This document shows, piece after piece, positions 9,661-27,011 of a stretch of DNA of 32,000 nt. The stretch comes from an uncultured Actinomycetes bacterium. Lineage in GTDB: Bacteria > Actinomycetota > Actinomycetes > S36-B12 > CAIYMF01. The stretch is from contig CAWJMG010000003.1 in NCBI GenBank assembly GCA_963843975.1, forward strand, positions 990,001 to 1,022,000, read 5' to 3'. How positions within the stretch are numbered: the first letter of the stretch is position 1; every line of letters starts with the position of its first letter. The notes beneath the pieces are model-generated. The model saw nothing but the letters and a program-made list of their open reading frames with translations, was not told the origin of the DNA and made no database searches. The translations under genes and the position numbers were made by a program.

Positions 9661-9774
9661 GGGCGGAGGCTAGAGCCCGACCCGCGCACTCGTCGCGGGT
9701 TCGTACGGAATCGCAACGGGCCCGCGGCCGCGCGTCGGCCGAGCGGACCCCGTCGGCGTCCCTAGCCTGGGGCC

Positions 9775-10158: not shown

Positions 10159-10164
10159 CCCACG

Positions 10165-10214
10165 GATGTGGTAGTGCCAGGGCGTCACCAGTGACGCCCT
10201 GGCACTACCACATC
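10165..10214. terminator. Perfect 24-bp-arm palindrome between convergent genes (bidirectional terminator candidate)
   Basis: gatgtggtagtgccagggcgtcac (10165-10188), ca, gtgacgccctggcactaccacatc (10191-10214). It lies between the HNH stop (10158) and the MaoC stop (10218). Confidence 0.7.
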
Positions 10215-10217
10215 GGG

Positions 10218-10742
10218 TCAGGCGGTGAGGGGGCCGGTCTTGGCCTCGGGGAAGTAGTCCTGGCCGATGCCGGTCTCGCGCTTGGGGACCATGACCGAGC
10301 GGGTCCACGACACGATCACGTCGCCGTCCTGGTTGAGGCCGCGCGTGATCATCGTGACGATGCCGAAGCCGGGGCGGGACGAGCTCTCGCGCAGGTCGGT
10401 GCAGATGCTCTCGGCGTAGATCGTGTCGCCGATGTAGACGGGGTGCGTGAGCTTGATGGCGTCCCAGCCGAGGTTGGCCACGGCGTTCTGGCTCATGTCG
10501 ATCACCGACAGGCCGAGGACGAGCGCGACGGTGAGGCCGGAGTTCACGATGATCCGGCCGCCCGTGATCGGGTTCGACTGCGCGAGGTGCGCGTTGAAGT
10601 GGTTCTGGTTGGTGTTGCACGTGAGCTGGGTGAACCACGTGGAGTCGGCCTCGGAGATCGTGCGGCCGAAGGGGTGCTGGTAGACGTCGCCCACGACGAA
10701 GTCGTCGAAGAACCGGCCGAGCTCGGCCTTGTGCAGGGTCAT
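10218..10742 (-). CDS. MaoC-like (R)-specific enoyl-CoA hydratase / hotdog-fold dehydratase
   Basis: 174 aa. The sequence FVVGDVYQHPFGRTISEADSTWFTQLTCNTNQNHFN... is typical of MaoC dehydratase family members. AGGAGG lies upstream of the ATG. Confidence 0.85.
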   Translation of the reverse strand: MTLHKAELGRFFDDFVVGDVYQHPFGRTISEADSTWFTQLTCNTNQNHFNAHLAQSNPITGGRIIVNSGLTVALVLGLSVIDMSQNAVANLGWDAIKLTHPVYIGDTIYAESICTDLRESSSRPGFGIVTMITRGLNQDGDVIVSWTRSVMVPKRETGIGQDYFPEAKTGPLTA

Positions 10743-10830
10743 GGGGAGTCCTCCTGATCACGGTCACCGGCGCCACGATGCGCCGACGTCCCGACTGTAC
10801 GAAGACGGTGTACCGCGGCGCAGCGCAGGT

Positions 10831-11874
10831 CTACCAGCGCTGGAGCGGCGCGACCTCGGGGTGGTCCTCGCGCAGCGGTGGGACGCCGTACAGGCCCGGC
10901 GGCAGCGGGTCCGTGTGCAGCGCGAGGGCCGCGAGCATCGAGGAGGAGTCGGCGTAGGCGTCCGCGGCGAGCGTCTCGGTGTGGGCGAAGTCGAGCAGGC
11001 TGGACGTGATCTGCTCCGGTGCCGGCAGGTAGATCACCGGCAGCTCCTCGGCCACCTGCAGGTCGCGCAGAACCTGCTGGCGCGTGGCGATCTGCACTGC
11101 CTGGACGACGACGGCGATGAGGCTCTCGGCCCAGCGACCCTCCATGCCGAAGCGCCCGCAGTCGAGCACCACGACCGACTTCGCACCGCGCGCGTACGCC
11201 ACCTCGATCGGCACGTTCGACACCAGACCGCCGTCGACCAGGCGACGGCCGTCACGCTCGACCCATGGGAAGACACCGGGGATCGCGGACGACGCGAGCA
11301 ACGCCGAGCGCACGTCACCGGAGTCCATCTCGACCCTCTCGCCGGTGTCGAGGTCCGTGGCGACCGCGACGAACGGCACGGCCAGGTCCTCGATCCGGTC
11401 GACGGGCACGTGCGAGGCGAGCAGGTCGGTGAGCGGACCAGGGCTGAACAGGTACGGCCGGTTCGCCCCGGCCGCGATCGCCTGGGTCAGCACGTTGCCC
11501 GGGAAGACGTCGCGGCGCTCGATCAGCGGCCACAGCGCGGCCAGGGTGTCCGGGCCGGAGCCCGGGTCGGCGGCGATCATCACGCCGTTCAGCGAGCCGA
11601 CGCTGGTGCCGACCACGAGGTCCGGCCGCAGGTCGGTCTCGTGCAGCGCGCGGATCATGCCCATCTGCACCGCGCCGTACGCACCGCCGCCGCCGAACAC
11701 GAAGGCCAGCGGCCGCGGCAGCAGCCGCGCGAGCGACAGGGGCACCGCCACGGACGGCGGCAGCGGGGCCGGCGGATCGTCGAGGGTGTCCGGCACTCCC
11801 CCGGCCACCGCGGCCGCGCGCTGCTGGGCGCGCAGCTCGGACCGCCGCACCTTGGCCTCGCGCCTGCCCGGCAT
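10831..11874 (-). CDS. Patatin-like phospholipase
   Basis: Oxyanion GGGGAYG, nucleophile elbow GTSVG and catalytic Asp in VDGGL. I chose the ATG at 11874. The ORF stays open to 11955. Confidence 0.85.
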   Translation of the reverse strand: MPGRREAKVRRSELRAQQRAAAVAGGVPDTLDDPPAPLPPSVAVPLSLARLLPRPLAFVFGGGGAYGAVQMGMIRALHETDLRPDLVVGTSVGSLNGVMIAADPGSGPDTLAALWPLIERRDVFPGNVLTQAIAAGANRPYLFSPGPLTDLLASHVPVDRIEDLAVPFVAVATDLDTGERVEMDSGDVRSALLASSAIPGVFPWVERDGRRLVDGGLVSNVPIEVAYARGAKSVVVLDCGRFGMEGRWAESLIAVVVQAVQIATRQQVLRDLQVAEELPVIYLPAPEQITSSLLDFAHTETLAADAYADSSSMLAALALHTDPLPPGLYGVPPLREDHPEVAPLQRW

Positions 11875-11968
11875 CCCGACGTCCCTCCCGCGACGCGCGT
11901 ACGGCGTCCCCTCGATCCTCCCAGTCCGAGGGCGCGCCGGCCTGCCGACTCGCACCTAGGGTGGCCGG

Positions 11969-12760
11969 GTGGAGACCCCCGAGCTGTTCACCCTCGAGCA
12001 CGTGTCGCTCGAGATCGACGGCCGGCGCCTGCTCGACGACGTCGACGAGCACCTCCACGACGGGACGGTCACCGCCGTCTGCGGGCCGAGCGGCTCCGGG
12101 AAGTCCACGCTGCTGCGCCTGTTCAACCGCCTGACGGACCCGACCTCCGGCCGGGTGCTGTTCCGCGGCACCGACGTCCGCGACCTCGATGTCCGCACCC
12201 TGCGACGGCGGGCGGTGCTCGTGCAGCAGCGGGCGGTGGCCCTGACCGACGACGTCGCTGCCGAGGTCCGTGTCGCCGCGCCCGCCCTGACCGACGCCGA
12301 CGTGGCCGCGCTCCTGCAGCGCGTCGCGCTCGACCCGGCCGAGGTGCTCGGCCGCTCGCCGCAGAGCCTGTCCGGCGGCGAGCTCCAGCGGCTCGCGCTC
12401 GCCCGCGCCCTCGCCGTCGGCCCGGAGGTGCTCCTGCTCGACGAGCCCACCTCGGCGCTGGACCCGCGCGCGGCCGACGCCGTGGACGCCGTGATCCGCA
12501 GCATCGTCGACGACGGCCTGTCGGTGGTGCTCGTGAGCCACGACGTCGCGCGGGCCGAGCGCGTCGCCGACTCGGTGCGCGTGCTGCACGACGGCCGCGT
12601 CACCGCGCGCGGGGCCACCGGCGACATCGACCTCGTGCACGAGATGACCTCGCCGCCCGACGACGGCCACGAGCACCCTCCGGACGACCCGCGCTCCCAC
12701 GGCGCCGCGCACCGCGGCCACCTGCACGAGCCGCCCGAGACCACCTGGGAGCACGGATGA
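11969..12760 (+). CDS. ABC transporter ATP-binding protein, FetA/YbbL-like, with His-rich C-terminal tail
   Basis: GTG start. Walker A GPSGSGKST, signature LSGGELQR, Walker B LLLDEPTSALD, H-loop VSHD. The stop overlaps the permease ATG (ATGA at 12757-12760). Confidence 0.87.
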   Translation: METPELFTLEHVSLEIDGRRLLDDVDEHLHDGTVTAVCGPSGSGKSTLLRLFNRLTDPTSGRVLFRGTDVRDLDVRTLRRRAVLVQQRAVALTDDVAAEVRVAAPALTDADVAALLQRVALDPAEVLGRSPQSLSGGELQRLALARALAVGPEVLLLDEPTSALDPRAADAVDAVIRSIVDDGLSVVLVSHDVARAERVADSVRVLHDGRVTARGATGDIDLVHEMTSPPDDGHEHPPDDPRSHGAAHRGHLHEPPETTWEHG

Positions 12761-13524
12761 CCCACATCCCGAGCTGGACAGCCGTTGCTGTGTCCGGCCT
12801 GCTCGTCCTCGTCGCCGTCGGCATCGCGTCGTGGCAGCAGCTCGGGATCAGCCGGGACATGGTCGTCGCCGCCGTGCGTGCTCTCGTCCAGCTGGTCGCC
12901 GTCGGCGCGGTCCTGGCGTGGCTCTTCCTCCACGCGGGGATCCTCGGAGCCCTGGCCTGGATCGCGGGCATGACGGTCGTCGCTGCGTTCGAGTCCAGGC
13001 GCCGGGGCGCAGGCCTCCCCCGTGCGTTCCTGTCGGCGCTGCTCGGGATCGCGGTCGGCACGCTGGCGACCCTCGGCGTGCTCGTGGTGGGCGGCGTCAT
13101 CTCCACCGAGCCGCAGGTGCTCATCCCCATCGGCGGCATGGTCGTGAGCGGTGCCATGCAGGCCTCGTCGCTCACCCTCACCTCGCTGCGCCGCTCGGCG
13201 CTCGACCGGCGGCCCGCCGTCGAGGCCGCGCTGTCGCTCGGGCTGGGCCCGCGGGAGGCCTTCGCGGGCGAGATGCGCACGGCCGTGCGGACGGCGCTCG
13301 TGCCCTCGATCGACTCCACCAAGGTCGTCGGCCTCATCGCCCTGCCCGGCACGATGACCGGCCTGATCATCGCCGGCGTCGAGCCGCTCGAGGCGATCCG
13401 CTACCAGATCATCGTGATGTACATGCTGCTGGCGGCCTGGGCCGTGGCGGCCCTGGTGACGGCCCGCGCGGCGGAGCGCTGGATGTTCGACGACGCCGAG
13501 CGTCTCGTGACCGTGTCAACCTGA
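12757..13524 (+). CDS. ABC transporter permease, FetB/YbbM (UPF0014) family
   Basis: This is the last 255 codons of the 931-aa track ORF. It is a multi-TM protein, and the motif STKVVGLIALPGTMTGLIIAGVEPLEAIRYQIIVMYML is typical of YbbM/FetB. Confidence 0.85.
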   Translation: MTHIPSWTAVAVSGLLVLVAVGIASWQQLGISRDMVVAAVRALVQLVAVGAVLAWLFLHAGILGALAWIAGMTVVAAFESRRRGAGLPRAFLSALLGIAVGTLATLGVLVVGGVISTEPQVLIPIGGMVVSGAMQASSLTLTSLRRSALDRRPAVEAALSLGLGPREAFAGEMRTAVRTALVPSIDSTKVVGLIALPGTMTGLIIAGVEPLEAIRYQIIVMYMLLAAWAVAALVTARAAERWMFDDAERLVTVST

Positions 13525-13555
13525 CGACCCCTCGGGCGTCCTTTCCTGCAGGGAG

Positions 13556-13580
13556 CCCCGGCGGGAACCGATCGCCGGGG
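13556..13580 (+). terminator. Weak hairpin after the ABC operon
   Basis: ccccggcg (13556-13563), 9-nt loop, cgccgggg (13573-13580). There is no U-tract. Confidence 0.3.
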
Positions 13581-13704
13581 CGGGTCGTCGGAACGTTTCG
13601 GAGCGGTCGTTCGTGCGGGGACGGTGCGCGGAGCGCCGTCGCGGGTGACAATCGGTGCCGGTGGGGGCCCTCCCCTGCCGTACGGGTCGACCAGAGGAGA
13701 CCGA

Positions 13705-14700
13705 GTGACGATCGACGGAACGGCCACCCAGGGCCAGGCCGACCCCGGTGAGGTCTCCGAGCTGGTCCACTCGGCCGCCCGGATCCGCGCGGCCGTCGAG
13801 ACCGTGATCGAGGGCAAGGGCGAGGTCATCCGCGTCGCCCTCACCGTCCTGCTGGCCGAGGGCCACCTCCTCATCGAGGACGTGCCCGGCACCGGCAAGA
13901 CGATGCTCGCCAAGACCCTGGCGAAGTCGCTCGACTGCTCGGTGCGACGCATCCAGTTCACGCCCGACCTCCTCCCCGGCGACGTCACCGGCGTCAGCGT
14001 CTTCAACCAGGAGACGCGGGACTTCGAGTTCCGCCCCGGCGCTGTCTTCGCCAACATCGTGCTCGGCGACGAGATCAACCGCGCCTCGCCGAAGACCCAG
14101 TCCGCCCTCCTCGAGTGCATGGAGGAGCGCCAGGTCACCGTCGACGGCACGACGTACGAGCTCGCCGCGCCGTTCATGGTCATGGCCACGCAGAACCCGG
14201 TCGAGATGGAGGGCACGTACCCCCTCCCCGAGGCCCAGCGCGACCGCTTCATGGCCCGGGTGTCGATGGGCTACCCCGACACCAAGTCCGAGATGGACAT
14301 GCTCGCCGAGCACGCGGCCACCAACCCGCTCGACGTCGTGCAGCACGTCGCCGACGCCGCCGAGGTCTCGCGCCTGGTGGACGTCGTGCGCAGCATCCAC
14401 GTCGCGGCCTCGATCCGGCAGTACGCCGTCGACATCGCCAACGCGACGCGTACGCACCCCGACGTCCGCCTCGGCGCCTCCCCCCGCGCCACGCTCCACC
14501 TCGTACGCGCAGCCAAGGCCGCAGCGGCTCTCGACGACCGCGACCACGTCCTGCCGGACGACCTGCAGACGCTCGCCGGCCCCGTGCTCGCGCACCGCCT
14601 GATCCTCACGGCCGACGCCCAGATCGCCGGCCGCACCACCGAGTCGGTCGTCGCCGACGTCATCAAGCGCGTCGCGGTCCCCGCTGCGGCCCGGGCCTAG
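13705..14700 (+). CDS. moxR: MoxR-family AAA+ ATPase
   Basis: GTG at 13705 with AGAGGAGA 5 nt upstream. The ORF is open from 13624. Walker A is GVPGTGKT (DVPGTGKTMLAK) and Walker B is VLGDEINRASPKTQSALLE. Confidence 0.92.
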   Translation: MTIDGTATQGQADPGEVSELVHSAARIRAAVETVIEGKGEVIRVALTVLLAEGHLLIEDVPGTGKTMLAKTLAKSLDCSVRRIQFTPDLLPGDVTGVSVFNQETRDFEFRPGAVFANIVLGDEINRASPKTQSALLECMEERQVTVDGTTYELAAPFMVMATQNPVEMEGTYPLPEAQRDRFMARVSMGYPDTKSEMDMLAEHAATNPLDVVQHVADAAEVSRLVDVVRSIHVAASIRQYAVDIANATRTHPDVRLGASPRATLHLVRAAKAAAALDDRDHVLPDDLQTLAGPVLAHRLILTADAQIAGRTTESVVADVIKRVAVPAAARA

Positions 14701-14712
14701 CGGGTCCTGCCC

Positions 14713-15993
14713 GTGCGCGCGGCTCTGCGTCAGCTCACCGGTCGAGGGCGGTTCCTGCTCGCCCTCGGCCTGGTCGGGCTGATCGTCTCCGTCGTGCTCG
14801 GGCAGCGTGACCTGCTGCGCTTCGGCGTCCTGCTGGTCGCCCTTCCCCTGCTGTCCGCCGCACTGGTGTCGCGCACCCGATACCGCCTCGCGTCGGCGCG
14901 CGGCCTGCGCCCCACGCGCGTCACCGTCGACACACCCACGACCGCGGTCGTGCGGCTCGAGAACGTGTCGCGCCTGCCCAGCGGGCTGCTCCTGGTCGAG
15001 GACGCCGTGCCGTGGCAGCTCGGCCGCTCGCAGCGCTTCGTCATCGACCGCCTCGAGTCCGGCGGACGCCGTGACGTGCGGTACGAGCTCCGCAGCCCCG
15101 TGCGCGGCCGCTACACGGTCGGCCCGGTGAGCGTGCAGCTCGTCGACCCGTTCGGCCTGTGCCGGGCGACCCGGCAGTTCGCCACCACCGACACCCTCAC
15201 CGTGGTGCCGGCGACCGTTCCCCTCCCCGGCATCCCGCTCGGGGGCGACTGGTCCGGGCTGGGCGAGGCCCGCGCCCGCGCGGTCGCCTCCGCCGGCGAG
15301 GACGACATCATCCCGCGCGAGTACCGCATCGGCGACGACCTGCGCCGCGTGCACTGGAAGTCCACGGCCAAGAGCGGCGAGCTCATGGTCAGGCGCGAGG
15401 AGCAGCCCTGGCGCACCCGGGCCACGGTCTTCCTCGACACCCGCGCCGTCGCGCACCGCGGCGACGGACCGGCCGGCTCGTTCGAGTGGGCGGTCTCCGC
15501 CGCGGCCTCGGTGGCCGTCCACCTCGCACGGCGCGGCTACTCCGTACGCATCCTCGACGCCGACGGCACCGTGCTCACCCCTGGCGCCATCAACGAGGAG
15601 GGCTTCTCCGGCGCCGAGGCCGAGGGCCCGCTGCTCGACACCCTCGCCCTCGTGACGCTCACCGAGGGCATCGCCCACGGGGTCGGCGACGCCCGCGGCC
15701 GCTCACGCGTGCGTGACGGGCTGCTCGTCGCGATCCTCGGCGACCTGGAGCAGACCCATGCCGAGTCCGTGGCGGCCCTGCGCAGCGGCCACTCCAGCGC
15801 CGCGGCGCTGGTCCTGGACACGTCGGGCTGGGCCTCGCGGGCGACGATGCCCGAGGACGGCCGCGCGACCCGGACGGCTGCGCTCCTGGCGGCCGCCGGC
15901 TGGCGCGTCGCCGTCTGCGGTCCGTCGACCGACCTCGGCACCACCTGGACCCATCTCGCCGGCAGCGGCTCCGTGGCGGGAGGCGCGCGATGA
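14713..15993 (+). CDS. DUF58 (vWA-like) domain protein
   Basis: 426 aa with GTG start and two N-terminal TM helices. The motif REYRIGDDLRRVHWKSTAKSGELMVRREE is the DUF58 signature. The stop overlaps the next ATG (ATGA). Confidence 0.87.
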   Translation: MRAALRQLTGRGRFLLALGLVGLIVSVVLGQRDLLRFGVLLVALPLLSAALVSRTRYRLASARGLRPTRVTVDTPTTAVVRLENVSRLPSGLLLVEDAVPWQLGRSQRFVIDRLESGGRRDVRYELRSPVRGRYTVGPVSVQLVDPFGLCRATRQFATTDTLTVVPATVPLPGIPLGGDWSGLGEARARAVASAGEDDIIPREYRIGDDLRRVHWKSTAKSGELMVRREEQPWRTRATVFLDTRAVAHRGDGPAGSFEWAVSAAASVAVHLARRGYSVRILDADGTVLTPGAINEEGFSGAEAEGPLLDTLALVTLTEGIAHGVGDARGRSRVRDGLLVAILGDLEQTHAESVAALRSGHSSAAALVLDTSGWASRATMPEDGRATRTAALLAAAGWRVAVCGPSTDLGTTWTHLAGSGSVAGGAR

Positions 15994-18368
15994 GCACCAC
16001 CACGACGCGACCCGCGGTCGATCCCGCGGCCGGCGGCCCCGCCGAGGCGGCGCGCCCAGGCGGCCCGGTCCCCCGCTCGCTCACCGTGCCGGGCGTCCTC
16101 GTCCCGTCCCTCGCCGTGTGGTTCGCGGTGCTCGCCTCGGCGCTGTGCCTCGGCACGGTCTTCCAGGAGTCGGGCTGGTTCGGAGCGACGCTCCTCACGG
16201 TCACGGTCGTCGTGGGCGTCGGCGCGCTCGCCACGTGGCTGCGGGTGCCGATGGTGCTGGTGCCCGTCCTCTGCGCGCTCGGGATGTTCGCCGCGCTGAC
16301 CCTGCGCTTCGTCGAGGACGCCCCCTGGGGCTTCATCCCCACGCCGGACGCCCTCGGGCAGCTGCGCGACGTCCTCGCCACGGGCACCACCGACATCGAC
16401 CGCTTCGCGCCGCCCGTGCCGTACACCGAGGGGCTCGCCGCGGTCACCGCGCTCGGGGTCGGGAGCGTCGCGCTCGTCGTCCTCGTGCTGCAGGTCGTCC
16501 TGCGGCTCCCGGCGATCGCCGGCCTCCCCCTCGTCGCGCTGTACGTCGTCCCCGCCACGATCCTGACCGGCGGAGCACCCTGGTGGGCCTTCGTCGCGGT
16601 CGTGACCGGCTGGCTGGTGCTCCTCGTCGCGGACGAGCGGCTCACGCTGATCAGCTGGGGCCGTCTGCTCAAGCGCAGCGACAAGGTCGGCGGCACCACC
16701 GCGCTGTCCGGCCTGTCGTCCTCGGCGTTCCGGCTCGGCGCGGTCGCCGTCGTCCTCGCGCTCGTGCTGCCCGTCGTGATCCCGGGCCTCGCCGACGCCG
16801 TCATCGGCCGCACGATCACCGCTGACGGGGCAGGCGACGGCGAGGGCACGGGCGAGGAGCCCGCCTCGATCGGCCTCGACCCGATCGTCGGCCTGCAGCG
16901 CAACCTGCTCAACAACCCCGACGTCACCGTGCTGACCTACAGCAGCACCGACCCGACACCCGGCTACCTCCGGGCCGTCGTGCTCGAGCAGTTCGACGGC
17001 GACTCCTGGAAGCCGCGCAGCTTCTCGGCCGACTCCGGCTCCACCCTGCTGACGGACGGCGTCGCCTCCCTGGCCGGCCTGCCCGAGGCCGTCAAGCGGC
17101 AGGAGTACACCTACCGCCTCACCGCCGACAAGCTCGACAGCCGCTACCTCCCCCTGCCTGAGACGTCCCTCAGGGTCGGCCTCGACGGCGACTGGCTGGT
17201 CGACCAGAGCACCCTCACGGTGTTCGGCGCCGACGACGTCACCACGACGACGGGCAAGACGTGGCAGGTCGACGCGGCCGAGATCGACCCGACGCCGGCC
17301 CAGTTGCGCGCCGCACCGCCGCTCACCGGTCAGGACCGCGCCACGGTGGCCACCTCGCTGGAGATCCCCGAGTCCCTCACCCAGACCGCCCAGGAGGTCA
17401 CGAAGGGCAGCACCACGGACTTCGACGCCGCCCGCGCGCTCGAGCAGTGGTTCCACAAGGAGTTCACCTACAGCACCAACGTGAAGTCGGACTCCTCCGC
17501 GTCGTACCTCGAGCAGTTCCTGCGCGACAAGACCGGCTACTGCGAGCAGTTCTCGGCGACCATGGCGCTGATGGCGACCTCGCTCGGCATCCGCTCGCGC
17601 GTCGCGGTCGGCTACACCAGCGGCAGCCCCGTGCAGGGCCAGGACGGCCAGTGGCGGGTGTCGGGCAAGAACGCGCACGCCTGGCCCGAGCTCTTCTTCA
17701 GCGGCATCGGCTGGGTCCGCTTCGAGCCGACGCCGCCCACCGCCAGCACCGGCATCGTCGCCCCGCCGTACACCGGCGAGGGCGCCGACACCCCGACCCC
17801 CGACCCGACCTCGAGCGCCTCGGCGCTGCCCGGGGGCAACCCGCGCGACCAGGACCTCGCCAGCCGCCGCGCCGACAAGGGCTCGGTCGACCTGCCGGAG
17901 ACCAGCGGCGGGCTCCTCCGCGCCGGCGACTGGTGGCGGATCTGGGCCTTCGTCGGCGTGCTCGCGCTGCTCGTCGCCGCGGCGCTCATCCCGGCCGGGC
18001 GCCGGCTCCTGCGCCGTCGTCGGCGCCTGTCGGCCGAGGCCGACGTCGAGGACGCCTGGGCCGAGCTCCGTGACAGCGCCCTGGACGTCGGCGCCGCCTG
18101 GTCGGACGCGCGCACCCCGCGCCAGGCCGTGGCCGGCCTCGTGACCGACCAGAACCTGTCCGGACCCGCGGCCGACGCCGCGATCCGGCTCGGTCGGGCG
18201 GTCGAGCGCTCGCGCTACGCCCCGACCCCCGCCGACACCACGCTCGTGACCGACGACGTCGCCACCGTGCGCGCCGCGCTGCTGCGCCGGCTCGACCGCA
18301 GCCGCCGGCTGCGGATCACCCTGGCGCCGGCCTCGCTGCGCGCCAACCGCGGGCCTGCCACCGCCTGA
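15990..18368 (+). CDS. Transglutaminase-like membrane protein (TgpA-type: polytopic N-domain, TGase core, C-terminal TM/DUF4129-like)
   Basis: 792 aa. The catalytic Cys is in [13 protein letters not shown], followed by HAWPELFF...WVRFEPTP. Six or more N-terminal TM helices. Confidence 0.9.
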
Positions 18369-18455: not shown

Positions 18456-18848
18456 CTACTCGCCGTCGCCCTCGCGGCGCTTGCGGAAGCGCTCGTCCAT
18501 CTTGTCCATGAAGCTGCTCTTGGGAGCGGCGGCCTTGGCCTTCTTGCCCGAGGGGGCCGGTGCCGCGGTGGCGGCTTCGGGCTCGGCACGCAGGGTCTGG
18601 ATGACCACGAACGTGCCGCCGAGCATCGCGAGGAAGCCGACGACACCGAGCGGGATGATCGCGGTGGCCGCACCGGCAACGAGCAGGCCGACACCGCCGA
18701 GCGCGACCAGGACGCCGATGGCGGCCTTGCGACGACTGCCCGGGCGCGGGCCCGCGGAGCGCAGGCTGGAGGCGAACTTCGGGTCCTCGGCGTAGAGGGC
18801 CCGCTCCATCTGCTCGAGCAGTCGCTGCTCGTGCTCGGAGAGCGGCAC
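18456..18848 (-). CDS. DUF3040 family membrane protein
   Basis: GTG at 18848 with GAGGAGG upstream. The start [29 protein letters not shown] is followed by two TM helices, the canonical DUF3040 layout. Confidence 0.85.
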
Positions 18849-19115
18849 GGCTCCTCCTCGGGTGGTCGGGCACTCGCGTGCACCCTGTCCTATGGGTCTG
18901 AGGATAAGCAGCACGGGCCGATGTGGAAACCCAGAGTCCAGAAGTGGTCCTCGGAGTGTCGATCGGGCGACGTGCCGGAGTCGTCCTCGTACGGTCCATC
19001 GGCAGCATCCGGGGCCCACCTGAGACGAACCGGATCGGCCGAACGGGCCTACTGGAAGGACGATCCGGACGCCGACGGCGTTCCCCGGCGACCGGCTCCG
19101 GAGTACGGCGACCCC

Positions 19116-20454
19116 TCAGCCCCGGCCGGGGCGCGGGGCGACGGGCTGCTGGCCGCCGAACCCCTCGTGGCCGCCCTCGCCCGGCTCCTCCGGGCCGGGC
19201 ACGAGCCGGGCCGGGCGGATCGAGCCGCGGCCGAAGCGTGCCACGGCGCGGTCCATCGCCTGCTCGGCCTCCCGCCAGCCGACCTCGGGCTCGTCGAGCA
19301 GCATCTGGCGGGGCGCCTCCGCGGCCTCGAGCAGGCCCTCGACCTTCACCCCGACGAGACGCAGCCGCGCCCGCTGCAGGCCGAGGGCGTCGTAGAGGTC
19401 GCGCGCGGTGGCGTAGACCTCGCGGCCGACGTCGGTGTGCGAGCGCAGGGTGCGCGAGCGGGTGATGGTGGAGAAGTCGGCGAAGCGCACCTTGATCGAG
19501 ACCGTGCGCCCGGCGACCCCGGCCTGGCGCAGCCGCGAGGCGACCTTCTCCGACAGGCGCAGCAGCTCGCGGTGGATGACCTCGGGGTCGTCGACGTCGC
19601 GCGGGAACGTCTCCTCGTTGCTGATGCTCTTCTCGCCCTCGGGCATCTCGACGCTGCGCGGGTCGCGGCCCCAGGCGAGGGCCGCGAGGTGCTGCCCGGA
19701 CGAGGAGCCGAGGGCGCGCACGAGGGTGTCGACCGGCGTGTGCGCGATGTCGCCGACCGTGCGCAGCCCGAGCCGGGTGCAGCTGCTCCTCCGTCTTCTC
19801 CCCCACGCCCCAGAGCGCGCCGACCGGCAGCGGGTGCAGGAACGCCACGACGCGGTCGGCCGGCACGACGAGCAGCCCGTCGGGCTTGGCCTGGGTCGAG
19901 GCGAGCTTGGCGACGAACTTGGTCGAGGCGACCCCGACCGTGCAGGTGATGCCCTGCTCGTCGTGCACGCGGGAGCGGATCGCCTCGGCGATGACCGCCG
20001 GCGGGCCGAGCCGGCGGATGCTGCCGGACACGTCGAGGAACGCCTCGTCGAGCGAGAGCGGCTCGACGAGCGGCGTGACGTCGCGGAACACCGCCATCAC
20101 GCCGGCGGAGACCGCGGAGTAGAGCTCGAAGTCCGGCGGCAGCACGATCACCTGGGGGCACAGCCGCTTGGCCCGCGACATCGGCATCGCCGAGTGGACG
20201 CCGTACTTCCTCGCCTCGTACGTCGCGGCGGTGACGACGCCGCGCGAGCCCTCGCCGCCGACGATGACCGGCTTGCCCACGAGGTCGGGGCGGCTGCGCA
20301 GCTCGCAGGACGCGTAGAAGGCGTCCATGTCGACGTGCAGGATCGTGCAGCCGTCGTCCTCGCGGCGGCCGTCGTGCGCCACCCGGGAGTCGCCGCTGGC
20401 CGAGACGTCGGACTGGGTGATCCGTGCGCCACGGGTGATCTGGCTGCGGCTCAT
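19116..20454 (-). pseudogene. dinB: DNA polymerase IV (Y-family, DinB), reading frame broken by one extra base near 19775-19777
   Basis: The N-terminal part has [14 protein letters not shown] and [10 protein letters not shown] (catalytic carboxylates present) up to [13 protein letters not shown]. The rest ([26 protein letters not shown]... plus the little finger) continues in the +1 frame as track ORF 19116..19721. Removing one C from CACCCGG restores about 445 aa. Confidence 0.88.
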
Positions 20455-20530
20455 CGCCCCCGCCTCCCTGCGCGCTGCACGGGCCCATCATGCGCCCCCG
20501 CACCCACGGACCACGTCACCCTCGGGGTCA

Positions 20531-20575
20531 CGCCGTGCTGCCTCACGCTGTGCCGCCTCACGCTGTGCCGCCTCA
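20531..20575 (-). repeat. 3 x 15-nt tandem repeat starting at the dnaE2 stop codon
   Basis: The minus strand reads TGAGGCGGCACAGCG TGAGGCGGCACAGCG TGAGGCAGCACGGCG, then TGACCCCGAGGG TGA. That makes five in-frame TGA codons (plus-strand tca at 20573, 20558, 20543, 20528, 20516). Confidence 0.85.
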
Positions 20576-23500
20576 CCACCCCGAGCTGCCCGGGCTCGAG
20601 TGCCAGAGCTTGCTCGGCGCGTCCTTCTTCTCCTTCGTGCGTTCCTTCTCGGCGCCCGCCTGGCTGCGGGTGTCGGCGGCGTCGACGCCCTGGGGCTTGA
20701 TGTCGGCGTACGGCGACTGCTTGAACCCGCTCGCGTGCACCAGGACCCGGCGCACCCGCTCCTCGCCGGAGAGCTCCGAGCCCCGCTGGCCCATGCCGCC
20801 CGCGGCCGGGCCCGCACCACCCGACGACGACGCGGCCGCGCCGAGCCCGCCCGGGCCGCCGTACTGCGCGCCCTGGGCGGCGGCGGGCACCACCGCGACC
20901 GGGCGGGTCGAGCGGCTGCCCGCGCGCCCGGCGACCGCGGCCTCGTCGGAGTCGTCGCGGGTGCCGCCGTCGTCGAGCAGCGCGGCGACGGCGGGCAGGC
21001 CGCCCGCGCGCCAGGCGTCGTGCACGACACCGAGCTCCCACGCGCCGGTGGCGCGCAGCGAGATGCCGCGCGGGCCGGTGCGCCGGATCACCCCGCGCAC
21101 GAGCAGCAGCCACGACCCGAACACCGTGGCGGCGTACGGGCCCTGGGCGTCCTCGAAGAACGTGGCGTCGACCGGGCCGGTGGAGTCGTCGAGGGTGAGG
21201 AACACGACGCGCCGCCCCGAGCGCACCGGCGGGGTCTGGGTGGCGACCTTCACGCCTGCCACGAGCACCTCGGACTGGCTGCGGCGCCCGAGCAGGTCGC
21301 GCGAGCGTGCGACACCGAGCGCGTCGAGCATCGGGGCGTAGAAGTCCACGAGGTGCCGGCTCGCGTCGAGGCCGAGCACCTCGAGCTCGGCGCGGACGCG
21401 CTCGGCGTCGGTCATCTCGGGCAGGCCGCTCGGAGCCACCTCCCCCGGCGCGTCGCCGAGGTCGAGGGCGAGCTGCACGTCGAGGTCGGCGGCGGCCGTG
21501 GCGGTGGCCGGGCCCTGCGCCTGACGACGGGCGGCGCCGACGGTGTCGAGGCGCGCGTCGACGGTGACGCCGACCGGGACCCCCGTGGGCCCCAGCGGGA
21601 GGTCGCGCCGCTTGCCGGCCGAACGCGGCGCGGCGGCCTTGGCCGCGCGGGTGGTGGCGCGGGTGTGCCGGTCGAGGTCGGCCACCTGCAGCAGGAGGTC
21701 GCGCCGGGTCACCCGGCCGCGGCGGCGCACCGGGCTCGACAGGCCGATGCCGTAGAGGGAGTCGAAGGCGCCCGCCACCACGAGCCGCTCGACGACCGGG
21801 CGCGAGACCCGGGCGCGGGTCCAGAAGTCCGAGAGCGAGCCGTACGGCCGGCCCGCCACGATCCGCTCGACCTCGGCGGCGTTGATGCCCTTGACGTCGG
21901 CGAGCGAGAGCCGGATGCCGTACGCCGACCCGTCGGGCAGGCCCGGCACGTCGGGACCGCGGCGCGGCCGCTCGTCGAGGATCTCCGGCGGCGGCTCGTC
22001 GTACGGCGAGACCTTCTCGACGGTGTACGTGCCGCCGGAGGCGTTGACGTCGAGGCCGAGCACCGCGATGCCGAGGTTGCGCGCGTCGTCGAGGATCAGC
22101 CGCTTCGGGTACATGCCCGGGTCGTGGGTGAGCACGCCGGCGAGGAACGCCGCCGGGTGGTGGGCCTTGAGCCAGGCCGAGTGGTACGTCGGCAGCGCGA
22201 ACGCCGCGGCGTGCGCCTTGCAGAAGCCGAAGGAGGCGAACGCCTTGAGCACCTCCCACACCTTCTCGGTGGTGACGAGGTCGTAGCCCTGCGCGCGGGC
22301 GGCCGGATAGAACCACGCGCGGACCTCCTGCTGGCCCTCGGGCGAGCCCATGCTGCGGCGCACCTCGTCGGCCTCGGCGAGGGTGCAGCCGGTCATGACC
22401 GCGACGATGCGCAGCACCTGCTCGTGGAACACCACGACGCCGTAGGTCTCCTCGAGCGAGGCCCGGAGGTCGTCGTGCAGGTAGACCGGCGCGTTCCAGC
22501 CCTGCCGGGCACGCAGGAACGGCGTGACCATGTCGGACTTCACCGGGCCCGGGCGGAACAGCGAGATGTCGGTGATGAGGTCGCCGAAGGTCTCGGGCGC
22601 GAACTTCCCGACGAGCTCGCGCTGGCCCGGCGACTCGATCTGGAAGCAGCCGAGGGTGTGCGCGGACTGGATGAGCGCGAAGGTCGCGGGGTCGTCGTGC
22701 GGCACGGCGTCGAGGTCGACCTGCTCGCCGTCGACCCGTTCGATCTCGGTGAGGGCGTACGCCATCGAGGACTGCATGCGGATGCCGAGGACGTCGAGCT
22801 TGAGCAGGCCGAGCTCCTCGACCTCGTCCTTGTCGAACTGGCTCATGGGGAAGCCCATCCAGCTGGCCTCGACCGGGGTGCGGTCCAGCAGTGTGGCGTC
22901 CGAGAGCAGCACGCCGCACGGGTGCAGCGCGATGTGGCGCGGCAGGCCGTCGAGCGCCTCGACGAGGGTGAGGAAGCCGTCGAGCTCGCCGCGTGCCGCG
23001 AGCCGGCCGAGGCCCGAGGAGCGCAGCTCGGGCAGCTCCTGCAGCGCCGCCCGGGCATCGCGCGCGCGGATGTGCGGGAACGCGGTGGCGAACGCGTCGA
23101 TCTCGCCGGGCGGCATGCCGAGCGCGGCCCCGACGTCGCGGACGGCGTGCCGCACGCGGTAGGTGTCGCGCATCGACACGCACGCGCAGCGCTCGCCGCC
23201 GAACCGCTCGAGGATCCGCTCGTACACCTCGGTGCGGCGCGCGGACTCGACGTCGACGTCGATGTCGGGCAGGGCCCGGCGCAGCGGTGACAGGAACCGC
23301 TCCATGAGCAGGCCGTGGGCGAGCGGGTCGACGCCGGAGATGCCGAGCAGGTGGTTGACGAGGCTGCCCGCACCCGAGCCGCGCGCGGCCACCCGGACGT
23401 CCATCCCCTTGATGAGGTCGACGACCTCGCCGACGGTGAGGAAGTAGCCGGCGAACCCGAGCACCGCGATGGTCTCGAGCTCGGCGTCGAGCCGCTCGCG

Positions 23501-24823
23501 CGCCTGCCGCGCGCGGTCGCCGCGGGTGCGCTGGGTGCGCGGGAGGTAGTCGGTGAGCGCGGCCTCGCACCGGGCGCGCAGGTGGCGGTCGGCCTCGAGC
23601 GCCTCGGCCGCGAGCGCCGCTGGGCCGCGGTCGCGGACCGCGCTGCTGCGCTCCGCCGTACGGGCAGGCAGGAGCAGGTCGAGCTCGGGCACGTGCACCT
23701 CGCCGATCCCGAGGTCGGCGACGGGGTCGAGCCGGCACGCCTCGGCCAGGGTGCGGGTGTCGGCGAGGAGGCGGTCGACCTCGCGCTGCTCGGTGCTGCC
23801 CGCGGCCGTGCCCGAGATCCGCACGACCTCACGGGCGACCTGCTCCATCCGCAGCCCGTCGGCGAGGTGGCCCTCGCCGTTGGCGCGGTCGAGGTGGCGG
23901 GAGTCGAGCGGGACGAGCCGGCGGATCGCGTCGAGGACGTCGACCACCGGGGCCTGGTCGCGCTCGGCGTGCCGCACCGCGTTGGTCAGCACCGCGGGCA
24001 GGTCGTGCTCGCGGGCGAAGGCGAGCATCCGCGCGGCGAACGCCGAGGAGTAGGGCAGTCCGCGGGTGCGGGCCCCCGACAGGTCGGCGGCCGCGGTGGC
24101 GGAGTCGCGCGCGCGGTGGCTCACCACCTCGATCGCGAGCCGCCGGCCGAACGCCGCCCGCCATGGCGCGAGGGCGACGAGGGCGACGTCCGGACGCCGG
24201 CGCGCGAGCGCGCGACCGACCTCGGACTCGGGACCGAGCAGCACGACGAGGCCGTCGGCGTGCCGCGCGACGACCTCGACCGTGGTGACCGGTGCCCCGC
24301 GCACGGCCTGCTCCCCCGGCAGCGCGTCGGAGCCGAGGCCGAGGTGCGCGGCGGACACGAGCCGGCACAGCGACGCCCAGCCGGTGCGGCCGCGCGCGAG
24401 CAGCACGACGCGTGGGTGCCGCGGATCGACCTCGGCGCCGCCGCGCGCGGGGGTGCGTCGTGCGGGCGGACCCCCGGTGCGGTCGGTGCGGTCGGTGCGC
24501 TCGGCGAGGGTGGGGCCCGAGCCGAGCCGGCCCGCGCCGGTGCGCTGCACCCGCGACCCGAGCGACCCGCGGCCGACGCCGAGGACGGGCACCTCGAGGT
24601 CGGGGCGCACGGCGAGGTCGAGGCCGAGGATCGGCGTGATCCCGGCGTCGCGGCAGGCCAGGACGAAGCGGACCGCGCCGTACAGGCCGTCGCGGTCGGT
24701 GAGGGCGAGGGAGTCCTGCCCGAGGTCGGCCGCCCGCGCCACGAGCGCGGCCGGGCTGCTCGCGCCGTGACGCAGGGAGTAGCCGGAGGCGACGTGGAGG
24801 TGGACGAAGGGGTCGCCGGCCAC
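20573..24823 (-). CDS. dnaE2: Error-prone DNA polymerase III alpha-type subunit DnaE2
   Basis: 1416-aa ORF with GTG start. The PHP N-terminus is FVHLHVASGYSLRHG, the pol III alpha core is intact, and the C-terminal tail is VHASGFKQSPYADIKP...KLWHSSPGSSGW, as in DnaE2/ImuC proteins. Confidence 0.93.
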   Translation of the reverse strand: MAGDPFVHLHVASGYSLRHGASSPAALVARAADLGQDSLALTDRDGLYGAVRFVLACRDAGITPILGLDLAVRPDLEVPVLGVGRGSLGSRVQRTGAGRLGSGPTLAERTDRTDRTGGPPARRTPARGGAEVDPRHPRVVLLARGRTGWASLCRLVSAAHLGLGSDALPGEQAVRGAPVTTVEVVARHADGLVVLLGPESEVGRALARRRPDVALVALAPWRAAFGRRLAIEVVSHRARDSATAAADLSGARTRGLPYSSAFAARMLAFAREHDLPAVLTNAVRHAERDQAPVVDVLDAIRRLVPLDSRHLDRANGEGHLADGLRMEQVAREVVRISGTAAGSTEQREVDRLLADTRTLAEACRLDPVADLGIGEVHVPELDLLLPARTAERSSAVRDRGPAALAAEALEADRHLRARCEAALTDYLPRTQRTRGDRARQARERLDAELETIAVLGFAGYFLTVGEVVDLIKGMDVRVAARGSGAGSLVNHLLGISGVDPLAHGLLMERFLSPLRRALPDIDVDVESARRTEVYERILERFGGERCACVSMRDTYRVRHAVRDVGAALGMPPGEIDAFATAFPHIRARDARAALQELPELRSSGLGRLAARGELDGFLTLVEALDGLPRHIALHPCGVLLSDATLLDRTPVEASWMGFPMSQFDKDEVEELGLLKLDVLGIRMQSSMAYALTEIERVDGEQVDLDAVPHDDPATFALIQSAHTLGCFQIESPGQRELVGKFAPETFGDLITDISLFRPGPVKSDMVTPFLRARQGWNAPVYLHDDLRASLEETYGVVVFHEQVLRIVAVMTGCTLAEADEVRRSMGSPEGQQEVRAWFYPAARAQGYDLVTTEKVWEVLKAFASFGFCKAHAAAFALPTYHSAWLKAHHPAAFLAGVLTHDPGMYPKRLILDDARNLGIAVLGLDVNASGGTYTVEKVSPYDEPPPEILDERPRRGPDVPGLPDGSAYGIRLSLADVKGINAAEVERIVAGRPYGSLSDFWTRARVSRPVVERLVVAGAFDSLYGIGLSSPVRRRGRVTRRDLLLQVADLDRHTRATTRAAKAAAPRSAGKRRDLPLGPTGVPVGVTVDARLDTVGAARRQAQGPATATAAADLDVQLALDLGDAPGEVAPSGLPEMTDAERVRAELEVLGLDASRHLVDFYAPMLDALGVARSRDLLGRRSQSEVLVAGVKVATQTPPVRSGRRVVFLTLDDSTGPVDATFFEDAQGPYAATVFGSWLLLVRGVIRRTGPRGISLRATGAWELGVVHDAWRAGGLPAVAALLDDGGTRDDSDEAAVAGRAGSRSTRPVAVVPAAAQGAQYGGPGGLGAAASSSGGAGPAAGGMGQRGSELSGEERVRRVLVHASGFKQSPYADIKPQGVDAADTRSQAGAEKERTKEKKDAPSKLWHSSPGSSGW

Positions 24824-24826
24824 GGA

Positions 24827-25514
24827 CTAGGACGCTGCTGCGGAGGGACCGCCGAGCAGTGGCTGGTGCGGCACGCCGAGCAGCCGGGCGACGCGGGCGA
24901 GGAACGCCTCGGAGTCGCGGACGAGGTCGTCGGCCTCGCGCTCGCTGACGACGCCGCGCAGCCCGGCCTCGGCCGCCGCGCGCTTGGCCGCGCCGGCGGC
25001 GAAGAACTGCGCCCACTCGCCGAGGCTCGGGCGCGACCTCGGCGAGCAGCACCCAGGCGCTGCGCAGCCGGGCCGAGCGCTTGCCCCGCGGACGGGCCCG
25101 GGCCGCGAGGACCGCAGCCGCAGCGCGGAGGGCGGCGAGGTGGGCACGCGCGTAGCGCAGACCGGTGTCGTCGGTGGAGCCGGCGGCGAGCAGCTCGCGG
25201 GCGGCACCGGCGAGCAGGTCGCGGCTCGCGACCGGCACGACCGCCGGCGGCTGGACCGGGGCGGGCGGGGCCGGAGTCACGACCACAGCGGGCTGGGCGG
25301 GGGCGGGGGCCTCCCGCGGGGTCTCGGCGAGTGCGGTCATGGCGGCTCCTCCCGGGGTCGGTGCGTCAGGGACGGTGGTCGGGACGGTCTCGGTGATCAG
25401 GGGCTCGGTGAGGACGAGCTGCAGGGGGCGGCCGGCCGGGCGCGGGCGGACCGGACGGGCCGGTGCCGGGCTGCGCCGGGCGTGAACGCCGCTGCGGGTG
25501 CGGGTGCTGGACAT
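24827..25514 (-). pseudogene. HEPN-like small protein (resembles the actinobacterial SAV_6107-type family), frame broken by one extra base near 25024-25025
   Basis: The ATG at 25514 has GGAGG 5 nt upstream and lies 12 nt after the previous stop. An alternative ATG is at 25340 (GGGAGGAG). Frame A reads ...RYARAHLAALRAAAAVLAARARP...AWVLLAEVAPE. It continues in another frame as LGEWAQFFAAGAAKRAAAEAGLRGVVSEREADDLVRDSEAFL.... The R-x4-H motif is RYARAH. The TAG stop lies 3 nt before the dnaE2 GTG. Confidence 0.7.
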
Positions 25515-25526
25515 CGGGACCTCCGA

Positions 25527-26012
25527 TCAGTCGAGGGTGCGCGCAAGGCGCCACCGGGCGGGGACGGGCGGGGCGGGCACGGGCTCCTCGAGCCGGGCGA
25601 CCGCGGCGGCCGGGACGTCGCGCACGAGGTCGTACACGCCGACCGAGGACGAGCGGCCCGCCCGCGCCTCGACCCGCCAGACCTCGCGCTCCACGGCACC
25701 GACGTCGAACGCGACCGAGCGCCGCTCGGGCTCCCGGGCATCGGCGGCCTCGACGGACTCGGCCGCTCCTCGGTCCTGCGCGACCCCGGCGCCGACGGGC
25801 GCCGGCCGCCTGCGGCGGCTGCCGGGCCCCGCCCACCAGGTGCCGAGCTCGATCCAGTGCGCGAGCACCGCGCGGACGACGTAGAGCCGGCCGCGCCAGA
25901 GGAACTGGTGCGGGACGGTGCCACCCGGCAGGTCCGGAAGTCCGGACGGGTCGTGCAGGTCGGACGGGTCGGGCGCCGTGCGGACCTCGATGGCCTCGCC
26001 GTAGGTGCGCAT
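25527..26012 (-). CDS. Small conserved hypothetical protein (recalled as DUF6504-like)
   Basis: The ATG at 26012 has GGAGGAG upstream. The sequence is MRTYGEAIEV...PHQFLWRGRLYVVRAVLAHWIELGTWW...EREVWRVEARAG...GVYDLV...RWRLARTLD. 161 aa. The family name is from memory and unverified. Confidence 0.68.
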   Translation of the reverse strand: MRTYGEAIEVRTAPDPSDLHDPSGLPDLPGGTVPHQFLWRGRLYVVRAVLAHWIELGTWWAGPGSRRRRPAPVGAGVAQDRGAAESVEAADAREPERRSVAFDVGAVEREVWRVEARAGRSSSVGVYDLVRDVPAAAVARLEEPVPAPPVPARWRLARTLD

Positions 26013-26297
26013 GGCGTCTCCTCCCCGGCCCAGGCGGGCACGGTGCTGGCTGGCTGGCGCGTGCCCGGACGGGCGGCGCAGCCGGTCGGGGGAGGCGACC
26101 GGCGGGCACCCGGCCCCGCCCTCGGGCCCGGCGCTTCCCCACGCCGAGGCCTGATGCGGGACCGACGGTGGGCCTGCGAGGACCGCGAGCTCCCCACAGG
26201 CCCACCGTGCCTCGTCGCGGCGGCCGCGAATCCGCCGCGCCGTGGCTGGTGGTGCCCGTCGTCCGCACCGGTGGCCCGACCCTCCCGCGAGAGAGGA

Positions 26298-26313
26298 TCG
26301 AACACCTGTACGA
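26298..26313. promoter_or_regulatory. LexA (SOS/Cheo) box-like palindrome
   Basis: TCGAAC-ACCT-GTACGA versus the actinobacterial consensus TCGAAC-N4-GTTCGA, matching 11 of 12 specified positions. It lies in the divergent region between the DnaE2 cassette and the ybaK-like gene. Confidence 0.5.
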
Positions 26314-26413
26314 ACAGAACCCACCGTAGCCCCCACCCCCGACAGCGCGTCAAGCCCCGTCCTGCCCGGCGTGCAGGCAGACGCTGCCGCCGCCCACCCC
26401 TACGCTCTCGGCC

Positions 26414-27011
26414 ATGGATCCCCAGAGCCACGAGGGCCACGAGAGCGACGACGGCGTCCACGACACCGAGCCCCCGCACGCCGGGGTCCACGCCGACGGC
26501 ACGCTCGCCGTCGCCGCACCCGACCTCACGGGCCTGCACCCCAACGCCGTCACGGTCGCCCAGGCCCTCGCCGGGCTCGGTGTGGCGGGCACGGTCCGCG
26601 AGCTCGCCGAGGCCGCTCCCACCGCTGCCACCGCCGCCGCCCAGCTCGGGGTCACGGTCGGCGCGATCGCCAACTCCCTGGTGTTCGACGCCGACGGCCA
26701 GCCGCTGCTCGTGCTCACCTCCGGCGCGCACCGTGCCGACACCCTCGCGCTCGCCGGCCTCGTCGGCGCCTCGCAGGTCAAGCGCGCGACCCCGGAGTTC
26801 GTCCGCCAGCACACCGGCCAGCCGATCGGCGGCGTCGCACCCGTCGGCCACCCGCACCCGCTGCGCACGGTCGTCGACGTCGAGCTTCTCGCGGCACGAC
26901 GTCGTCTGGGCGGCCGGCGGCCACCCGCACTACGTCTTCCCCACCAGCTACGACGAGCTGCTGCGCATCACCGCCGGCGAGGCCGCCGAGGTGGGCGAGG
27001 GCAAGGCCTGA
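26414..27011 (+). pseudogene. YbaK/EbsC-type aminoacyl-tRNA editing (deacylase) domain protein, frame broken by one extra base near 26885-26895
   Basis: Frame A reads ...AIANSLVFDADGQPLLVLTSGAHRADT...IGGVAPVGHPHPLRTVVDVEL. The conserved C-terminus HDVVWAAGGHPHYVFPTSYDELLRITAGE continues in the +1 frame, which is the tail of track ORF 24984..27011. Confidence 0.75.

Follow-up and report, generated by a model that had tools for sequence, protein, structure and literature searches.

What partners serve a DnaE2-type polymerase whose operon encodes neither ImuA/ImuA' nor a fused, catalytically dead ImuB? A dnaE2 cassette of this kind lies within a 32,000-nucleotide (nt) stretch of DNA (hereafter the window; positions 990,001 to 1,022,000 of contig CAWJMG010000003.1, assembly GCA_963843975.1) from an uncultured Actinomycetes bacterium, with a G+C content of about 74%. 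Four co-directional minus-strand genes stand behind a LexA box; their products are a DUF6504 protein, a HEPN_SAV_6107 protein, a polymerase of DnaE2 type and a DinB with its catalytic residues intact. An earlier interpretation made from the letters and open reading frames (the sequence-only reading) had described four tightly packed genes and proposed that the two small upstream ones form an alternative accessory or regulatory module for DnaE2. Domain matches and coordinates bear out the packing, and Pfam and NCBIfam searches bear out all of the gene assignments, as follows.

25527-26012, minus strand: imuB-C (DUF6504), 161 amino acids (aa); Pfam PF20114, E 1e-17
24827-25514, minus strand: HEPN_SAV_6107 gene; PF18726, E 3.6e-34 with the frame-corrected 228-aa product
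20573-24823, minus strand: dnaE2 (DnaE2B-type C-family polymerase), 1416 aa; PHP, pol3_alpha, finger, HHH_6 and OB domains
19116-20454, minus strand: dinB; IMS, IMS_HHH and IMS_C domains
20528-20576: 15-nt tandem repeat in 3.3 copies (GGCGGCACAGCGTGA), overlapping the dnaE2 stop codon and the dnaE2-dinB spacer

We consider it quite probable, from the sequence and by analogy with described systems, that the SOS response regulates this locus and that its operon encodes a translesion mutasome of DnaE2B type, with the HEPN protein as an additional partner. DNA damage would activate RecA, LexA would leave its box at 26298-26313, and a single transcript with a structured leader of about 285 nt would be made, from which four proteins would be translated with tight coupling among the first three genes. 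Published models suggest that the standalone ImuB-C beta-barrel would bind the PHP domain of DnaE2; the catalytically intact DinB-like Y-family polymerase (PolY) would supply a beta-clamp motif (QMLLDE) and a motif resembling the RecA N-terminus that recruits RecA, and the complex would carry out damage-tolerant, error-prone synthesis. The protein contacts, the SOS induction of the operon and the mutagenic function in this scheme derive from published AlphaFold 3 modelling and from the literature on ImuA'-ImuB-DnaE2.

Our own observations concern which genes and homologous domains are present, their synteny, how well the LexA box is conserved, and covariation in the RNA. A genome scan with an ImuB-C alignment recovered 80 loci from diverse Actinomycetota, and the order ImuB-C, HEPN, DnaE2, DinB is found in all 75 that have enough downstream DNA to be informative; they come from Nanopelagicales, Kineococcus, Ornithinimicrobium, Nocardioidaceae, Jiangellales, Frankiales and others. 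As judged from these sequences, the conservation of the four-gene order far exceeds chance, and the synteny of the small upstream pair with dnaE2, on which the sequence-only reading depended, holds well beyond the window. The three spacers in the window are also as that reading gave them: the imuB-C TGA is followed by 12 nt (TCGGAGGTCCCG, which includes GGAGG) and the HEPN ATG, the HEPN TAG by TCC and the dnaE2 GTG start (a 3-nt gap), and dnaE2 is separated from dinB by 118 nt that contain the 15-nt tandem repeat. The repeat region (20528-20576) aligns poorly even to the 95%-identical metagenomic contig L090 (L numbers are our labels for loci) and is apparently hypervariable.

By sequence comparison DUF6504 is the ImuB-C domain: the part of ImuB that binds DnaE2, its C-terminus, has here a gene of its own. 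When canonical ImuB proteins taken from plasmid imuA-imuB-dnaE2 operons were scanned with PF20114, the Komagataeibacter protein matched with 31.7 bits (cut-off 24.2; E 1.9e-7) at residues 430-508 of 512, and those of Sphingomonas (E 2.5e-4) and Agrobacterium (E 6e-3) likewise matched at the extreme C-terminus. The window protein is 39-46% identical to published standalone ImuB-C proteins, with BLASTP E values of 1e-18 to ABS04681 and 8e-19 to QBR94233 (from Kineococcus radiotolerans and Nocardioides euryhalodurans, respectively). Invariant in the DUF6504 alignment are QF-WR-R-Y, EREVWRVEA, GVYD and W-L, including W154, R40, R42 and R158; a conserved C-terminal Trp and basic residues are the hallmarks of ImuB-C given by Aravind et al., and thus support the identification. 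The AlphaFold2 (AF2) model of the window protein is beta-rich, with six strands and a core predicted local distance difference test (pLDDT) score above 90. A Foldseek search of the PDB with this model returned no similar solved structure, which is consistent with the published description of ImuB-C as a novel beta-barrel fold (PMC12926913), and a PDB sequence search found no ImuB-C structure. In an exhaustive HMMER search with the DUF6504 profile, the 150 listed of 751 matches were all short standalone proteins, with no ImuB among them. The sequence-only statement that the cassette has "no ImuA/ImuB" is therefore half right: no cassette protein matched ImuA/ImuA' in Pfam or NCBIfam (the positive control, NF058630, gives 188 bits on the ImuA' of locus L093, below) and there is no fused, dead ImuB, but the ImuB-C domain is present as DUF6504. 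A label of "ImuB-less" would mislead, since the key DnaE2-binding domain of ImuB is encoded separately.

The two polymerases point in the same direction. The window DnaE shares 50% identity (E 2e-92) with the published DnaE2B QBR90836 of N. euryhalodurans, over the first 400 aa of the latter, and 53-94% identity with the DnaE proteins of more than 70 syntenic loci, and by these measures it belongs to the DnaE2B group. The DinB translation matches Pol IV models and retains DMDAFYAS and SLDEAF, in agreement with the earlier observation that its catalytic carboxylates are kept; it is apparently an active Y-family polymerase. It also bears the clamp-motif-like QMLLDE and a C-terminus like the RecA N-terminus (RecA-NT), and in nearly all loci the DinB homologues end in Q[LM]xL[DG] followed by GWREAExAVDRAxxRFGxGSVRPA. 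The latter resembles the RecA N-terminus (...IDKNFGKGSVMRLG, printed in the supplement of PMC12926913), an assignment made by eye and not with those authors' profile. In our reading these tails correspond to the two motifs, clamp and RecA-NT, that PMC12926913 ascribes to these PolYs.

As far as its sequence tells, then, the cassette fits a composition that is already catalogued, the putative DnaE2B-PolY-ImuB-C-RecA mutasome of Timinskas and Venclovas (Nucleic Acids Research (NAR) 2026, PMC12926913). Those authors gave K. radiotolerans, Janibacter indicus, N. euryhalodurans, Ornithinimicrobium pratense and Tessaracoccus lapidicaptus as examples, obtained AlphaFold 3 models of the tetramer from these other species with an interface predicted template modelling score (ipTM) of 0.84 +/- 0.06, and proposed that RecA fills the role of ImuA by means of the RecA-NT motif of PolY. 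A standalone ImuB-C beside DnaE2 had been noted in 2013 (Aravind et al., PMC3765255), and the cassette type was foreshadowed in 2013 and 2019. The window shares with the published system its phylum, the standalone ImuB-C, the DnaE2B and the active PolY with a RecA-NT-like tail; moreover, a single gene that separates ImuB-C from DnaE2B is passed over in the published accession lists for Kineococcus, Janibacter and Ornithinimicrobium, in exactly the place that HEPN occupies here. It differs in that the dnaE2 product is 1416 aa long, as against 1250-1320 aa, and in that neither the HEPN gene nor a leader RNA is mentioned in the text and supplements of PMC12926913. Several lineages have, in addition, a gene resembling class I S-adenosylmethionine (SAM)-dependent methyltransferases (DLGGGTG motif) between dnaE2 and dinB, in agreement with the skipped accession ABS04678 in K. 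radiotolerans:

L036 (Kineococcus rubinsiae) 14906-16117: SAM-methyltransferase-like insert, also seen in other loci with a dnaE2-dinB gap of about 1 kb

Does the small upstream pair, as had been proposed, stand in for ImuA/ImuA' and ImuB as a new accessory module? The cassette does lack ImuA/ImuA' and a fused ImuB, and within this clade the synteny of the pair with dnaE2 is strict. DUF6504 is, however, itself the ImuB-C domain, and the published proposal already gives the ImuA role to RecA by way of the PolY tail (PMC12926913). The idea is moreover contradicted by additional contexts that we found by starting from HEPN homologues instead of ImuB-C. In a Mycobacterium-like metagenome-assembled genome and in another contig, DUF6504, HEPN, ImuA', ImuB and DnaE2 are encoded in one operon, and in Micromonospora sagamiensis, Catenuloplanes atrovinosus, Spirilliplanes yamanashiensis and two uncultured genomes HEPN is the first gene of an imuA'-imuB-dnaE2 operon (no DUF6504 open reading frame was detected upstream in the two of these loci checked, L099 and L100):

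L093 702-4476: DUF6504 and HEPN with the canonical operon
L096 6398-8039: DUF6504 and HEPN with the canonical operon
L099 (Micromonospora sagamiensis AP023438.1) 9001-15336: HEPN-imuA'-imuB-dnaE2
L100, L101, L102 and L103: HEPN-imuA'-imuB-dnaE2

Since the pair, or HEPN alone, shares an operon with ImuA' and ImuB in L093, L096 and L099-L103, it is not a substitute for them, and we judge the replacement idea to be quite unlikely. These gene arrangements indicate that HEPN accompanies DnaE2 systems of both architectures; they strengthen the part of the sequence-only hypothesis that made HEPN an accessory or regulatory partner of DnaE2, and remove the part that made it an alternative to ImuA'/ImuB. 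We found no link between HEPN and DnaE2 or ImuB-C in the searchable literature, which likewise has no description of the canonical operon combined with a HEPN gene, as it occurs in some Actinobacteria, and no mention of DUF6504 or PF18726; the Streptomyces venezuelae LexA-regulon supplements mention neither HEPN nor SAV_6107. HEPN is not always adjacent to DnaE2, since Nonomuraea gerenzanensis NZ_LT559118.1 carries an orphan SAV_6107-family gene (L092 8518-9252) beside a bldD-like helix-turn-helix gene, with no translesion synthesis genes within 9 kb and with two LexA boxes matching at 11 of 12 positions and a GGGGAAG-loop hairpin upstream (L092 8482-8537). This chromosome, 11.85 Mb long and mislabelled as a plasmid, was the sole match in a tblastn search of plasmids with HEPN.

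Is the operon under SOS control? Two elements lie upstream of the predicted leader:

26298-26313, minus strand: LexA (SOS) box TCGTACAGGTGTTCGA, matching the actinobacterial consensus TCGAAC-N4-GTTCGA at 11 of 12 positions
26323-26353, minus strand: promoter-like element directed toward the cassette, TTGACG (26353-26348), a 19-nt spacer and TACGGT (26328-26323)

The LexA-box-like site of the sequence-only reading is amply confirmed by comparison, with a perfect 12-of-12 box in 68 of 81 homologous upstream regions and an 11-of-12 box in 10 more; random 400-nt segments of the same loci contained a 12-of-12 box in 46 of 2000 cases. SOS control of the cassette is thus a strong sequence-level prediction, and it is consistent with the experimental finding that Streptomyces dnaE2 is bound by LexA and induced by damage (PMC3273824). 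The promoter-like element lies within a block, CTTGACGCGCTGTCGGGGG...CTACGGTGGG, that is invariant among six related genomes. A scan for consensus promoters and terminators found nothing, and it is the conservation and position of 26323-26353 that suggest a promoter.

Between the LexA box and imuB-C lies a further conserved element, which appears to be a structured RNA:

26013-26297, minus strand: conserved 5' leader of about 285 nt
26073-26164, minus strand: core leader RNA motif, a hairpin with loop GGGGAAG and then a hairpin with loop C(C/U)UCCCC

Mean identity of the leader over six genomes is 80%, while ImuB-C is only 64-71% identical there, and its indels of 1-2 nt argue that it is non-coding. 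RNAalifold predicted a long hairpin with compensatory changes, and an alignment of 29 loci resolves two hairpins whose stems vary and covary and whose loops, GGGGAAG and CUUCCCC, are nearly invariant. We counted 47 double-change cells in the stems, compared with 13 +/- 2.8 in shuffled alignments (none of 500 reached 47), and controls in which the pairing partner was slid along were much lower. Loop 1 is the complement of loop 2, and 98% of the cells are paired, but the loops are invariant, and hence covariation is silent on whether they pair; in the window the Shine-Dalgarno sequence GGGGAGG is a second complement of loop 2. A kissing interaction between the loops, or competition with the Shine-Dalgarno sequence, is therefore possible from the sequence. 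Single-sequence folding energy is no better than that of shuffles (z -0.68), a measure that is uninformative in G+C-rich sequence, so the argument for the leader RNA is the covariation. Among the 4227 Rfam covariance models the leader gave only sub-threshold chance matches (eukaryotic microRNA and SECIS models). A covariance model of our own (R1) had 31 matches in 1.45 Mb, all on the sense strand just upstream of imuB-C, and it also matches upstream of HEPN-imuA'-imuB-dnaE2 operons. Examples of the leader motif elsewhere are the following:

L093 580-664: leader motif
L096 6266-6349: leader motif
L099 8845-8928: leader motif
L102 6839-6924: leader motif

Both the leader RNA and the linkage of HEPN to these operons look unreported in the searchable literature.

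What, then, might the HEPN protein do? The frame-corrected product has a disordered, variable, Pro/Ala-rich N-terminal region of about 95 aa and a helical C-terminal domain of about 120 aa, which is a strong Pfam match to the SAV_6107 family (PF18726). The AF2 model of this domain (pLDDT >90) is a bundle of four helices running up and down, with helices 2 and 3 separated by an insert, and its predicted fold fits solved HEPN domains: the top five Foldseek matches in the PDB are all of this class (among them 2hsb, 1wol, 3o10 and 1ufb), with target template modelling (TM) scores of 0.60-0.64 and weak E values of 0.016-0.6. The sequence-only reading had pointed to an R-x4-H motif (RYARAH) of HEPN type. 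Its Arg and His (R120 and H125) are indeed invariant across homologues, as are K177, R178, R192, D195 and D196, but they lie at the start of helix 2, whereas the canonical Rx4-6H is found at the end of helix 3 or in the helix 3-4 loop (PMC3710099). In our protein the corresponding stretch is K177-R178-AAAEAGL and lacks the His of the RNase-type motif, which agrees with the "No" entered for Rx4-6H in the SAV_6107 family by Anantharaman et al. (2013, PMC3710099). That entry gave no gene context; here the family is placed in an SOS/DnaE2 context and has an invariant, non-canonically located R-x4-H. These sequences neither support nor exclude catalysis by the HEPN protein. The window and Longivirga share 97% identity in this domain and 71% in ImuB-C.

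In the disordered N-terminus, residues ~29-37 (RPLQLVLTEP, window 25400-25430) belong to a motif that this clade keeps as LQLVL-x-EP and a sister clade as LQLxLD; most other lineages have short HEPN N-termini without it.

L002, L003, L004, L010, L015, L016 and L022: HEPN N-terminal LQLVL-type motif

The motif resembles the clamp-binding-type RQLVLGE(P) with which DinB ends in Kineococcus and Nocardioides. The idea that the HEPN QLVL motif compensates for a degenerate DinB clamp motif was dropped when the pattern failed across loci. Also rejected was a relationship to Avd, the diversity-generating retroelement accessory protein that partners a mutagenic polymerase, which had surfaced in a PDB profile search (E 0.11) and was not supported by Foldseek.

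The role that we regard as most likely for HEPN is that of a non-catalytic accessory or regulatory subunit of DnaE2 systems. Such a subunit would suit the general logic of Pol V (UmuD'2C-RecA) and of Bacillus YqjW-YqjX/YolD, in which an SOS-induced error-prone polymerase is likewise combined with small accessory subunits and RecA; those systems differ in having unrelated small subunits (UmuD' and the SH3-like YolD), no C-family polymerase and no HEPN. The main competing explanation is that HEPN is an RNA-directed regulator which binds or cleaves the leader or other transcripts and so limits or times expression of the mutasome in the course of the SOS response. HEPN domains usually bind RNA or act as RNases (PMC3710099), the model adopts the HEPN fold seen in 2hsb, 1wol, 3o10 and 1ufb, its best structural match belongs to the AF0298-like HEPN family, for which an alternative His has been proposed (PMC3710099), and the residues listed above, from R120 to D196, are invariant. 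Furthermore, the same covarying leader motif precedes operons that start with imuB-C-HEPN and operons that start with HEPN alone, and the Nonomuraea orphan has both LexA-like boxes and the GGGGAAG hairpin upstream. On the other hand, the family has no Rx4-6H in the canonical place (the end of helix 3), the leader motif is detectable in only about 40% of window-type loci while HEPN is present in all of them, and the leader could regulate translation by itself. We therefore rate an RNA-directed role as somewhat unlikely.

Many HEPN families are toxins or defence effectors (PMC3710099), and a second competing idea is that a module of this type merely hitch-hikes beside SOS genes; weak PADLOC matches to the candidate component PDC-M05B (E 4e-4, 18.5 bits), the only ones from that search, could be taken in its favour. 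But there is no minimal nucleotidyltransferase (MNT) or antitoxin partner, the neighbours being ImuB-C and DnaE2, and the gene has a fixed place inside the operon, 3 nt from dnaE2, that is conserved across actinobacterial orders and two operon architectures, with a domain that is far better conserved than ImuB-C in the Longivirga comparison above. We consider hitch-hiking to be very improbable.

Could the cassette in the window be a decaying remnant? The HEPN gene is split by a +1 C near 25024-25030, and dinB, as the sequence-only reading overlooked, has a +1 C near 19779; thus half of the cassette's genes are shifted by +1 when set against uninterrupted orthologues that are about 95% identical in DNA, and the shifts could be real inactivating mutations. 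These orthologues are those of the metagenomic contig L090, whose HEPN, DinB and ybaK-like proteins are 225, 445 and 197 aa long. Yet the same kind of insertion (near 26884, also overlooked) interrupts the unrelated ybaK/tRNA_edit-like gene that diverges from the cassette (26414-27011, plus strand), every other coding indel relative to L090 is a multiple of three, and protein identity on either side of the shifts is 93-100%, with no additional damage. The 2.76-Mb source contig and this error pattern would suit an indel-prone long-read assembly. With three single-base insertions within about 8 kb, one of them in an unrelated gene, the frameshifts are probably assembly errors as judged from these alignments, and we think decay unlikely.

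Several points nevertheless weigh against an SOS-regulated DnaE2B mutasome with HEPN as a partner. Should the shifts in HEPN and dinB be real, the copy in the window could be non-functional. In Streptomyces, the only DnaE2B system to have been tested, deletion of dnaE2 had no UV-survival or mutagenesis phenotype (PMC3273824). The published AlphaFold 3 tetramer models are confident without the HEPN protein, and in T. lapidicaptus the ImuB-C, DnaE2B and PolY accessions are contiguous, VEP41449-41451, so HEPN may be absent there and may be dispensable (both PMC12926913). Finally, when the DUF6504 alignment was compared by hhalign with the C-termini of seven ImuB proteins, the correct motif was aligned but the score was weak (E 0.018).

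The DnaE2B mutasome reading also places the window with respect to two better known arrangements. Like the canonical ImuA/ImuA'-ImuB-DnaE2 systems of Caulobacter, Pseudomonas and Mycobacterium tuberculosis, it is an SOS-box operon with a DnaE2-type polymerase (in the canonical case as its end), an ImuB-C domain and a protein of Y-family fold with clamp and RecA-NT motifs; unlike them, it has no ImuA/ImuA', its Y-family protein keeps the catalytic carboxylates, its ImuB-C is a separate 161-aa protein and its polymerase is DnaE2B, not DnaE2A. The Streptomyces dnaE2-dinB2 pair (DnaE2B-iPolY-RecA, where iPolY is an inactive PolY; PMC3273824) similarly couples a DnaE2B-type polymerase to a downstream Y-family gene under LexA control, with damage induction shown there and the LexA box recognized by sequence here, but its PolY is classed as inactive whereas that of the window looks active. 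Many Streptomyces linear plasmids carry a DnaE2B-like dnaE whose product is 46-50% identical to the window protein; the one plasmid inspected, from Streptomyces sp. MMBL 11-1 (L082 6061-11218), has dnaE, a truncated Y-family gene and lexA, and no ImuB-C or HEPN.

Beyond dinB, at a distance of about 265 nt and in the same direction, lies a DUF3040 gene (18456-19019, minus strand), an arrangement also present in L090 and L095. Next to it is a TgpA-like transglutaminase gene (15990-18368, plus strand, 792 aa), and in L090 and L095 a DUF58 gene lies beyond the latter.

Taken together, these comparisons place a highly conserved HEPN-fold protein, by its genetic wiring, in DnaE2 operons of two architectures, including the imuA'-imuB-dnaE2 operons of cultured Micromonosporaceae, and both this protein and the leader RNA are missing from current mutasome models. 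We tentatively suggest, as a possibility well short of our confidence in the mutasome itself, that the DnaE2 mutasomes of actinobacteria generally include HEPN_SAV_6107 as a component, SOS-regulated and so far unrecognised, that the operons are also under a new cis-regulatory leader RNA, and that HEPN may act on this leader to gate polymerase expression. Kineococcus radiotolerans, Micromonospora and other tractable hosts would allow both the linkage and the leader RNA to be tested, and the two could reveal a new layer of control over the deployment of mutagenic polymerases.

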